64,000 bases of DNA from the NCBI GenBank assembly GCA_000004695.1, contig CM000155.2, positions 1,088,001-1,152,000 of the forward strand, written 5' to 3'. How positions within the stretch are numbered: position 1 is the stretch's first letter; each line of letters opens with the position of its first letter. The notes under the pieces are model-generated. The model was not told the DNA's origin and made no database searches. It saw only the letters and a list, made by a program, of their open reading frames with translations. Origin of the DNA: Dictyostelium discoideum. Taxonomy: Eukaryota. A program made the translations under genes and the position numbers. This document shows, piece after piece, positions 13,689 through 15,010 of the stretch.

Positions 13689-13787
13689 ATGAATTGGAAA
13701 AAAATTACAACTATGGGAGTTATGGTACTCGCTTCAGGTATGTAAAATTAAAATTTTAATTATTAATTTAATTAATCATAATATAAA

Positions 13788-13828
<41 letters not shown>

Positions 13829-15010
13829 CTCTTGAAATATATTATAGCTATTGCAGCAGCTTATTCAAGTGGTAGTGAAACAATTTTATGTCCATTAGTG
13901 AATCATTGTGAAAAAGTTAATGAATGGGTTGAAAATAATGATGTTCCATATGCAAAATTCAATTGTCATATAACAAATATTGGTAATACACCAATTGGTA
14001 ATGTTGTAATGAGATTATCTGGTGATGGTAAAACTAAAGAAGTTTGGGAAATGGAAACAAAAGATAATGGTCAAACCTATAATTTCCCTCAATGGAGACA
14101 ACAACAACAATTAGCATTTAACCAATCTCATCCATGGGGTTACACTGTTCAAGGTGGTAAAGAATTAAATGTTAATTTATGTGGTGGTGCAACACCATAT
14201 ACCAATAATTTACAATCAAATCAACAAACTCAAACTCAACAAAAATCATCCGATATTGTTTGTAACCTTTCAAATAAATGTACAGTTTCAAACCAATGGA
14301 AAAACGGTGACCAAGTTAATACACAATATAAATGTTTTATAACCAATAATGGTAAAGTTCCAGTATCATTCATTGATATTCGTATAAATGGTAATAGTGA
14401 TCTTTACAATGTCTGGGAAATCATAACACCAAATAATGGTTTATCATGGGATTTAACATCTTGGAGAATTGACAAACCATTAGAAGCTACCCAATCTCAC
14501 GAATGGGGTTACATCATCGTCGGTGATAAACCATTAGATATCCAAGTTTGTCAAAATAGTCCAATCCCAACTGTCACTCAATCACCATCACCAATTTCAT
14601 CAAATAAACAACAAAAATCAATTGTTCAACAAGAAGAAGCTGATGGTTCAAGTTCAACTACTACTACCACAACCACCACCACCAATCAAGATCAAGTTGT
14701 TTGTACAGTCTCAAATAAATGTACAGTTGAAAAGGAATGGAAAAATGGTGAACAAAAGAATAAACAATATAGTTGTGAAATCACAAATAATGGTAAAGGT
14801 CCACTCTCACATGTCGATATTCGTCTTAGTAATAACAGTGCTCTTTACAATGTTTGGGAAGTTTATACTGTAAACAATGGTCTCTCTTTTGATGTCTCAC
14901 CATGGAGACTCGATAATCCAATTCAACCAGGTCAATCTCACTCTTGGGGTTATATCGTCAATGATGATGTTGCTTTAGATGTTAAAGTTTGTCAAATGGG
15001 TACAAACTAG
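13689..15010 (+). CDS. Secreted protein with three tandem ~120-aa CBM49-like (cellulose-binding-type) repeats
   Basis: Exon 1 13689..13737 (MNWKKITTMGVMVLAS, signal peptide; donor GTATGT), exon 2 13848..15010. There are three repeats of C..N.C.V...WKNG.Q....Y.C.ITN.GK.P.S..DIR.......YNVWE.......G.S.D...WR.D.P....QSH.WGYI, separated by T/Q-rich linkers. Confidence 0.7.

Follow-up and report, generated by a model that had tools for sequence, protein, structure and literature searches.

A putative trivalent cellulose binder of the Dictyostelium discoideum spore wall: the three CBM49 modules encoded by DDB_G0292054

Introduction

What could a protein made of three putative cellulose-binding repeats, with no enzyme attached to them, do in Dictyostelium discoideum, and in which cellulose structure would it act? 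This question is raised by the gene at positions 13689-15010 (+) of the window analysed here, that is, the whole stretch of 64,000 nucleotides, whose G+C content is 24%. The gene, DDB_G0292054, and its CBM49 annotation were already known from UniProt and from a 2026 proteome paper (PMC12821622), so that only its specific role has been unstudied so far. A full-text literature search for the identifier DDB_G0292054 returned no paper naming the gene, and the identifier is absent from the supplements of the marker paper; it is found among the gene lists of PMC4403905. In this context, the structure of the gene, the fold and relatives of its modules and the published expression data have been brought together. 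They reveal no new kind of domain, mechanism or system, and their practical value is modest, but an uncharacterised gene gains a specific and testable role, that of a late, spore-specific, multivalent cellulose binder.

Gene structure and secretion

The gene has two exons and extends from the ATG at 13689 to the TAG stop codon at 15008-15010. Exon 1 (13689..13737, +) encodes residues 1-16 and the first base of codon 17, including the KK n-region and the greater part of the signal sequence's hydrophobic core; it is followed by an intron of 110 nt (13738..13847, +; GTATGT...ATAG), very AT-rich and with a long T run, and by exon 2 (13848-15010, +), which runs to the stop codon. After splicing, the coding sequence of 1212 nt is in frame and gives a product of 403 aa, identical to the D. 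discoideum AX4 protein XP_629795.1/EAL61383.1 (UniProt Q54DS7), whose name in UniProt is "Carbohydrate binding domain-containing protein". Since the translated product matches XP_629795.1 exactly, the intron call is confirmed indirectly, and the gene limits drawn in the first-pass annotation of this DNA are exactly those of the annotated gene. The predicted mature protein has a mass of ~42.5 kDa and a pI of 5.2.

The signal peptide proposed from the sequence at first is also supported, residues 1-24 forming a typical predicted signal sequence with the KK n-region and a hydrophobic core, where mean hydropathy is above 2 in 9-residue windows over residues 6-13. The last part of the predicted signal is made up of residues 17-24 (...AIAAAYSSG; 13848..13870, +). 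All orthologues retain the hydrophobic stretch at the N-terminus, and this signal predicts that the product is secreted. Beyond it, the hydropathy scan of the protein gave no other 19-residue window above 0.45. A membrane or GPI anchor was considered as well, and was ruled out by hydropathy: the C-terminal tail, made up of the five residues QMGTN before the TAG (14993..15010, +), is hydrophilic and, having no hydrophobic stretch, carries no GPI signal.

The three modules and their linkers

Three CBM49 modules are located at residues 31-128 (module 1; 13889..14182, +), 155-251 (module 2; 14261..14551, +) and 302-398 (module 3; 14702..14992, +). Each is flanked by Cys at both ends and has two more Cys inside (positions 31/37/56/128, 155/161/179/251 and 302/308/326/398, respectively), and four Trp per module are in register across all three (43/83/99/113, 167/206/222/236 and 314/353/369/383). 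Identity between modules 2 and 3 is 60%, and module 1, the most divergent of the three, is 34-36% identical to either. These internal repeats are real and far beyond chance, since a tblastn search with each repeat against the 64-kb window recovered the other two at E values from 1e-17 to 1e-41. No copy besides these three was found by tblastn across the window, and the idea of a tandem CBM49 gene cluster was for this reason rejected.

The protein had initially been described as three repeats of about 120 aa with the same Cys spacing and a common consensus, a description which needs some adjustment. The number is right, but not the size, as the modules cover ~98 aa from first to last Cys and succeed one another with periods of 124 and 147 aa. 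The Cys spacing is the same except for a one-residue insertion in repeat 1, and the consensus suits repeats 2 and 3, repeat 1 keeping only the skeleton of the motif. Regarding the disulfides, Cys1 would pair with Cys4, by analogy with the Luke lectins of Acanthamoeba and CBM2a, and Cys2 would pair with Cys3 across the first hairpin.

Between the modules lie two linkers, for which T-rich and Q-rich sequences had been noted. Linker 1 (residues 129-154, 26 aa; 14183..14260, +) is rich in Q, T, N and S and shows indels and low identity among strains and species, while linker 2 (residues 252-301, 50 aa; 14552..14701, +) is SP-rich at first and then contains a run of nine Thr. The residues S, T, P, Q and N make up 65% of the first and 70% of the second, compared with 35% in the modules. 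Dictyostelium coat proteins carry mucin-type glycosylation, and this, together with the composition of the linkers, makes it probable that these are O-glycosylated.

Family, fold and candidate binding residues

The CBM49-like nature of the repeats, as first proposed, holds for every one of them individually. The whole protein scores 108.4 bits (E 2e-31) against Pfam CBM49 (PF09478), and modules 1, 2 and 3 alone score 43.8, 44.6 and 46.4 bits, about twice the gathering score of 23.4. The refuting outcome named in the first-pass annotation, a lack of CBM-family HMM matches, was therefore not observed. CBM_2 also matches, more weakly than CBM49, and these are the only two families to pass the Pfam thresholds, in agreement with the earlier remark that no catalytic domain is present. 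Sequence searches of the PDB, both with the whole protein and with a module profile, gave nothing significant; it is through Pfam and through the fold that the modules are related to CBM2.

The full-length AlphaFold (AF2) model, built from nine sequences, was poor (pLDDT 52) and was left out of the fold search. A model of module 3, based on 11 aligned modules taken from four species, had a pLDDT of 90 and a pTM of 0.79 and corresponds to an all-beta sandwich. In structure comparison, the modelled fold resembles solved CBM2 modules, and the module model thus has the CBM2-like beta-sandwich that characterizes CBM49. The best structural neighbours include the chitin-binding modules 6bt9, 2rtt, 2cwr and 8ose and the xylan-binding CBM2b 2xbd. 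As modelled, the fold is that of type-A modules, which bind to crystalline polysaccharide; the fold alone does not fix the ligand, since the solved relatives include chitin and xylan binders.

The binding residues can be considered at a finer level. Cellulose binding by CBM2a, plant CBM49 and Acanthamoeba Luke-2 requires three aromatic residues arranged in a linear strip, and a Luke-2 mutant with both triads (W35/W73/W88 and W187/W228/F244) replaced by Ala loses Avicel binding and wall targeting (PMC11423589). The triad predicted for each module of DDB_G0292054 is formed by the Trp located 12 residues after the first Cys, the 'VWE' Trp and the 'WR' Trp, namely W43/W83/W99, W167/W206/W222 and W314/W353/W369. 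The fourth Trp, that of "WGY", is typical of Dictyostelium cellulose-binding proteins (PMC6541295). All four Trp, as well as the four Cys, are invariant in every aligned module (D. discoideum, D. firmibasis, D. purpureum and Polysphondylium violaceum). When aligned with the Acanthamoeba 3xCBM49 protein ELR22327.1, both the first and the last Cys, Trp 1, the "WE" Trp and the "GY" Gly fall in register, and so does the third aromatic, 15-16 residues after the "WE" Trp, which is W in DDB_G0292054 and Y in ELR22327.1. Alignment by hhalign of the module profile with Cex CBM2a pairs Cex W54 with the "VWE" Trp and Cex W72 with the "WR" Trp, a result which is not significant (E 0.35) and serves only as a consistency check of the Trp register; the Cex sequence used agrees with the published W17/W54/W72 numbering. 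Altogether, the CBM49 fold and the conserved Trp triad predict, by analogy, that the product binds cellulose.

Timing and cell type of expression

The cellulose stalk and the spore coat had both been suggested as the setting of the protein, with developmental expression as a way of checking it, and published expression data (PMC6198379, Kin et al. supplement) retain the spore and dismiss the stalk. Values for DDB_G0292054 mRNA up to 16 h are 0.09, 0.16, 9.7, 0.85 and 4.65 (the last at 16 h), and reach 1415 at 20 h and 4801 at 24 h; in the slug, they are 0 in prespore and 1.68 in prestalk cells. Among the other cell types, 865.9 TPM were reported for spores, 29.0 for stalk, 13.3 for cup and 1.54 for vegetative cells, which means that spore mRNA is ~30-fold above stalk (PMC6198379). 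Moreover, the protein is really made and appears at culmination, since mass spectrometry found it enriched then and in fruiting bodies, with stage-versus-rest log2 values of -3.7 (vegetative), -2.1 (aggregation), -2.8 (mound), +5.1 (culmination) and +3.6 (fruiting body), and an adjusted P of 7e-5 (PMC12821622).

The gene was assigned to k-means cluster 3, as was spiA, for which the time course reads 2.7, 2.5, 13, 4.0, 12.4, 3044 (20 h) and 5830 (24 h), with 67.7 in prespore, 4.7 in prestalk, 11.9 in cup, 767 in spore, 54.9 in stalk and 9.4 in vegetative cells (PMC6198379). By its culmination-only induction, its enrichment in spores and its cluster, DDB_G0292054 belongs to the spiA class of late sporulation genes. 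The likeness to SpiA (Dd31), a late spore-coat protein which the literature places on the coat's inner face, is one of co-expression only: the expression profiles are nearly identical, both being off until 16 h, in the thousands at 20-24 h and spore-enriched, and the two proteins are found, together with SP70, SP60 and SP85, in proteome cluster 5 (PMC12821622). The gene does not fall within the class of the prespore-vesicle coat proteins (CotA-C, PspB/SP85), as its expression is 0 in prespore cells and below 5 at 12-16 h, while cotB already reaches the thousands at 8 h (PMC6198379). Its product passes the Pfam thresholds only for CBM49 and CBM_2.

As for regulation, a scan for CArG boxes (SrfA-type) in the 5' intergenic region, 12945-13688, gave no site, the count over the whole window being at chance level. 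Several spore-wall genes are named as SpaA targets in the main text of the SpaA paper; the identifier DDB_G0292054 is not in its supplements, and the full ChIP-seq target table is possibly outside those files.

Relatives and evolution of the modules

Full-length orthologues were found at stringent E values in D. citrinum, D. firmibasis, D. purpureum and P. violaceum, as well as in further isolates of D. discoideum. In the D. discoideum isolates, the protein is 403, 406, 409, 409 and 423 aa long, with modules 93-100% identical and gaps confined to the two linkers (poly-N, poly-T and 'SNT/SNS' insertions), none falling within a module. The modules align without gaps, with 86-98% identity inside the D. 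discoideum complex and 47-65% in comparison with D. purpureum, module 2 being 92-98% identical, likewise without gaps, to its counterparts in D. citrinum and D. firmibasis. In the repeat tree, all module-1 sequences from four species form one clade, and module 3 comes out as a copy derived from the module-2 type. In P. violaceum, the third module (residues ~270-358) keeps only the first Cys, having lost the other three of the four as well as the Trp triad, and scores 19 bits against the profile; judging from its sequence, it has the look of a CBM49 that has degenerated or been repurposed.

An exhaustive profile search with the module HMM over 1.84 billion cluster representatives (E <= 1e-3) gave 98 matches only, and all those with a taxon name belong to Amoebozoa. 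A word-index protein search with the module alignment gave no match even at E 10, probably owing to a limitation of the index. The closest relatives carry one module in Cavenderia fasciculata, two in Tieghemostelium lacteum, three in P. violaceum, six in Acytostelium subglobosum and six or seven in Synstelium polycarpum, so that, from the sequences available, the number of CBM49 modules is evolutionarily fluid in dictyostelids, from 1 to 7. Among the next tier are cysteine proteinases of D. discoideum that carry two CBM49 (DDB_G0281077/79), CBM49-bearing GH5 cellulases and reprolysin-CBM49 fusions of Clastostelium.

Comparison with known systems

The closest architecture described is that of the Luke(3) cyst-wall lectins of Acanthamoeba castellanii (e.g. 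ACA1_245650), for which the 3xCBM49 protein ELR22327.1/L8HAP9 was taken as the representative in the comparison. Both systems consist of a signal peptide and three CBM49 beta-sandwich modules with no other domain, joined by low-complexity spacers rich in hydroxy amino acids, with Cys at both module ends and the aromatic triad in register. Their size and charge are also alike, Luke(3) having 42-44 kDa and a pI of 5-6 (PMC6541295), close to the values given above for the Dictyostelium product. Furthermore, both are made late in the formation of the wall of a dormant cell whose wall contains cellulose, Luke(3) appearing late in encystation, in the cellulose-rich endocyst layer (PMC11423589, PMC6541295). 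Nevertheless, identity per module is only 16-21%, the Acanthamoeba representative scoring only 53 bits against the DDB_G0292054 module profile; the Dictyostelium modules add a second Cys pair and the fourth conserved Trp ('WGY'); and the spacers are T/Q/N-rich in Dictyostelium and S/P/A-rich in Luke(3). Binding of cellulose and chitin is experimental for the Luke lectins, whereas that of the DDB_G0292054 product is predicted.

A three-module ancestor common to both systems seems unlikely because of this low identity, the extra Cys pair and Trp and the lineage-specific duplication behind module 3. The two layouts probably arose independently, as the copy number of 1 to 7 in dictyostelids and the lineage-specific module 3 suggest. 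We would give little credit to the broader idea that a trivalent, enzyme-free CBM49 lectin, produced late while the wall is forming, is a shared amoebozoan way of organising the cellulose of dormant walls, with Luke(3) as a functional and possibly ancestral counterpart; if true, it would provide a direct molecular link between wall assembly in encystation and in sporulation. In any case, a Luke(3)-like three-module CBM49 protein is present in Dictyostelium, a fact unremarked in the comparative literature on amoebozoan walls. The cellulose-binding proteins of D. discoideum have been described in general as having a single CBM49, and the Luke lectins as having two or three (PMC6541295). DDB_G0292054, with its three modules alone, and its dictyostelid relatives with 2-7 modules indicate that the single-CBM49 description is incomplete.

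Within the same organism, the nearest parallels are St15/ShD, StaB, EcmC, EcmD and CelB, which are secreted and whose CBM49 modules have demonstrated cellulose binding, according to the accounts of Wang et al. (2001) given in PMC6541295 and PMC12821622. The four-Trp type of CBM49 is common to DDB_G0292054 and the Dictyostelium matrix proteins, as the latter are described in PMC6541295. These proteins serve the stalk, sheath or germination programmes, whereas DDB_G0292054 is late and spore-specific. More distant are bacterial CBM2a (Cellulomonas fimi Cex/CenA, PDB 1EXG/6QFS) and plant CBM49 (tomato SlCel9C1), with 13-20% identity; in Cex/CenA and SlCel9C1 the modules are attached to glycoside hydrolases, and DDB_G0292054 has no enzyme domain.

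A role in the spore wall

The main interpretation of the first-pass annotation, a secreted protein with several CBM49 modules that would bind cellulose, is supported by the three Pfam CBM49 matches, the CBM2 fold model and the N-terminal signal. Since the mRNA is found in spores and at 20-24 h, the role can be narrowed to the spore wall, leaving aside the stalk and the sheath. We consider it reasonably probable, though well short of assured, that DDB_G0292054 encodes a late-deposited, secreted, enzyme-free and trivalent cellulose binder of the spore wall. The product would be a soluble secreted glycoprotein, with three CBM2-like beta-sandwich modules on flexible T/S/Q/N-rich linkers, and the three-Trp strip of each module would stack, as it does in Acanthamoeba Luke-2 and bacterial CBM2a, against the flat surface of crystalline cellulose. 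Transcription takes place at culmination alone (20-24 h) and exclusively in sporulating cells, along with spiA, a timing that coincides with the laying down of the spore wall's cellulose layer. Because of this coincidence, the product may be expected to bind nascent spore-wall cellulose, and its spore-wall location is likewise suggested by the late, spore-specific expression. Being trivalent and flexibly linked, it could bridge neighbouring microfibrils or coat them densely, and such cross-linking or coating might have a part in how the spore wall is packed and made impermeable. Dictyostelium possesses dozens of CBM49 proteins, so a knockout of the gene may have no phenotype.

Other functions have to be weighed against this one. 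The abundance of the mRNA in mature spores (866 TPM) would also fit a message stored for germination, in which case protein or mRNA would be held in the dormant spore and would act at germination like the non-catalytic CelB (270-11), binding the coat cellulose so as to direct cellulases such as CelA to it, to help them, or to loosen its microfibrils. CelB is itself a cellulose-binding CBM49 protein, DDB_G0292054 has no catalytic domain either, and celA mRNA is similarly abundant in spores (2562 TPM; PMC6198379). Nevertheless, the profile of DDB_G0292054 follows spiA and not celA, DDB_G0292054 being already at 1415 at 20 h, when celA stands at 7.6, to reach 217 at 24 h (PMC6198379), and the protein is most enriched at culmination, before dormancy; a function in germination is, in our opinion, unlikely. 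A matrix protein of the stalk tube or slime sheath, like St15/ShD, StaB, EcmC and EcmD, could be imagined from the CBM49 family shared with them and from the cellulose-binding domains of many stalk-specific genes, but it is highly improbable in view of 29 TPM in stalk compared with 866 in spores and of near-nil expression in the slug, at the time when the sheath is made (4.7 at 16 h, 1.7 in prestalk cells).

The polymer bound might also be another than cellulose, such as the galactose/GalNAc-rich polysaccharide of the coat, or chitin and other glycans of environmental organisms, the product then being a non-cellulose lectin. The chitin and xylan binders among the structural neighbours (6bt9, 2rtt, 2cwr, 8ose and 2xbd) point in this direction, as does the ability of Acanthamoeba Luke lectins to bind chitin besides cellulose (PMC6541295). 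Yet each of the three aromatic positions holds a Trp and aligns with the cellulose-binding triad, the Dictyostelium CBM49 modules that have been tested bind cellulose, the walls of D. discoideum are reportedly without chitin (PMC6541295), and expression coincides with the deposition of spore-wall cellulose, so that such a ligand appears quite improbable. The binding of spore-wall cellulose therefore remains our preferred reading.

Genomic neighbourhood

DDB_G0292054 has as neighbours a gene for an ABC transporter, a WD40 gene resembling Sec13 and one for a DOCK-family GEF, none of which shows a functional link to it; unlinked neighbours are to be expected at a eukaryotic locus. An ORF at 5680-8040 (+), with an ABC-2 membrane domain and one ABC ATPase domain, is probably part of an ABCA-type transporter gene. 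Directly upstream of DDB_G0292054 lies a multi-exon WD40 gene (11850-12944, +), for which Pfam gives generic WD40/beta-propeller matches only, and which is presumably Sec13-like, as its C-terminal exon was recognised by eye as such. The DOCK-family GEF is a single ORF of 2107 aa (18445-24768, +) with DOCK_N, DOCK-C2, TPR_DOCK and DHR-2 lobes, and contains long poly-Q, poly-N, poly-S and poly-T tracts.

ARAGORN detected four tRNA-Ser genes within 36 kb, at 9223-9304 (-), 36940-37021 (+), 41630-41711 (-) and 45095-45176 (-), which share the anticodon UGA and form a local cluster. About 130 bp downstream of the second of these there is an ORF with a reverse-transcriptase domain (37152-39540, +; RVT_1, E 1e-27), followed by an overlapping ORF of 521 aa without a Pfam match. 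The RVT_1 ORF looks like the insertion of a tRNA-gene-targeted non-LTR retroelement (TRE3-like).
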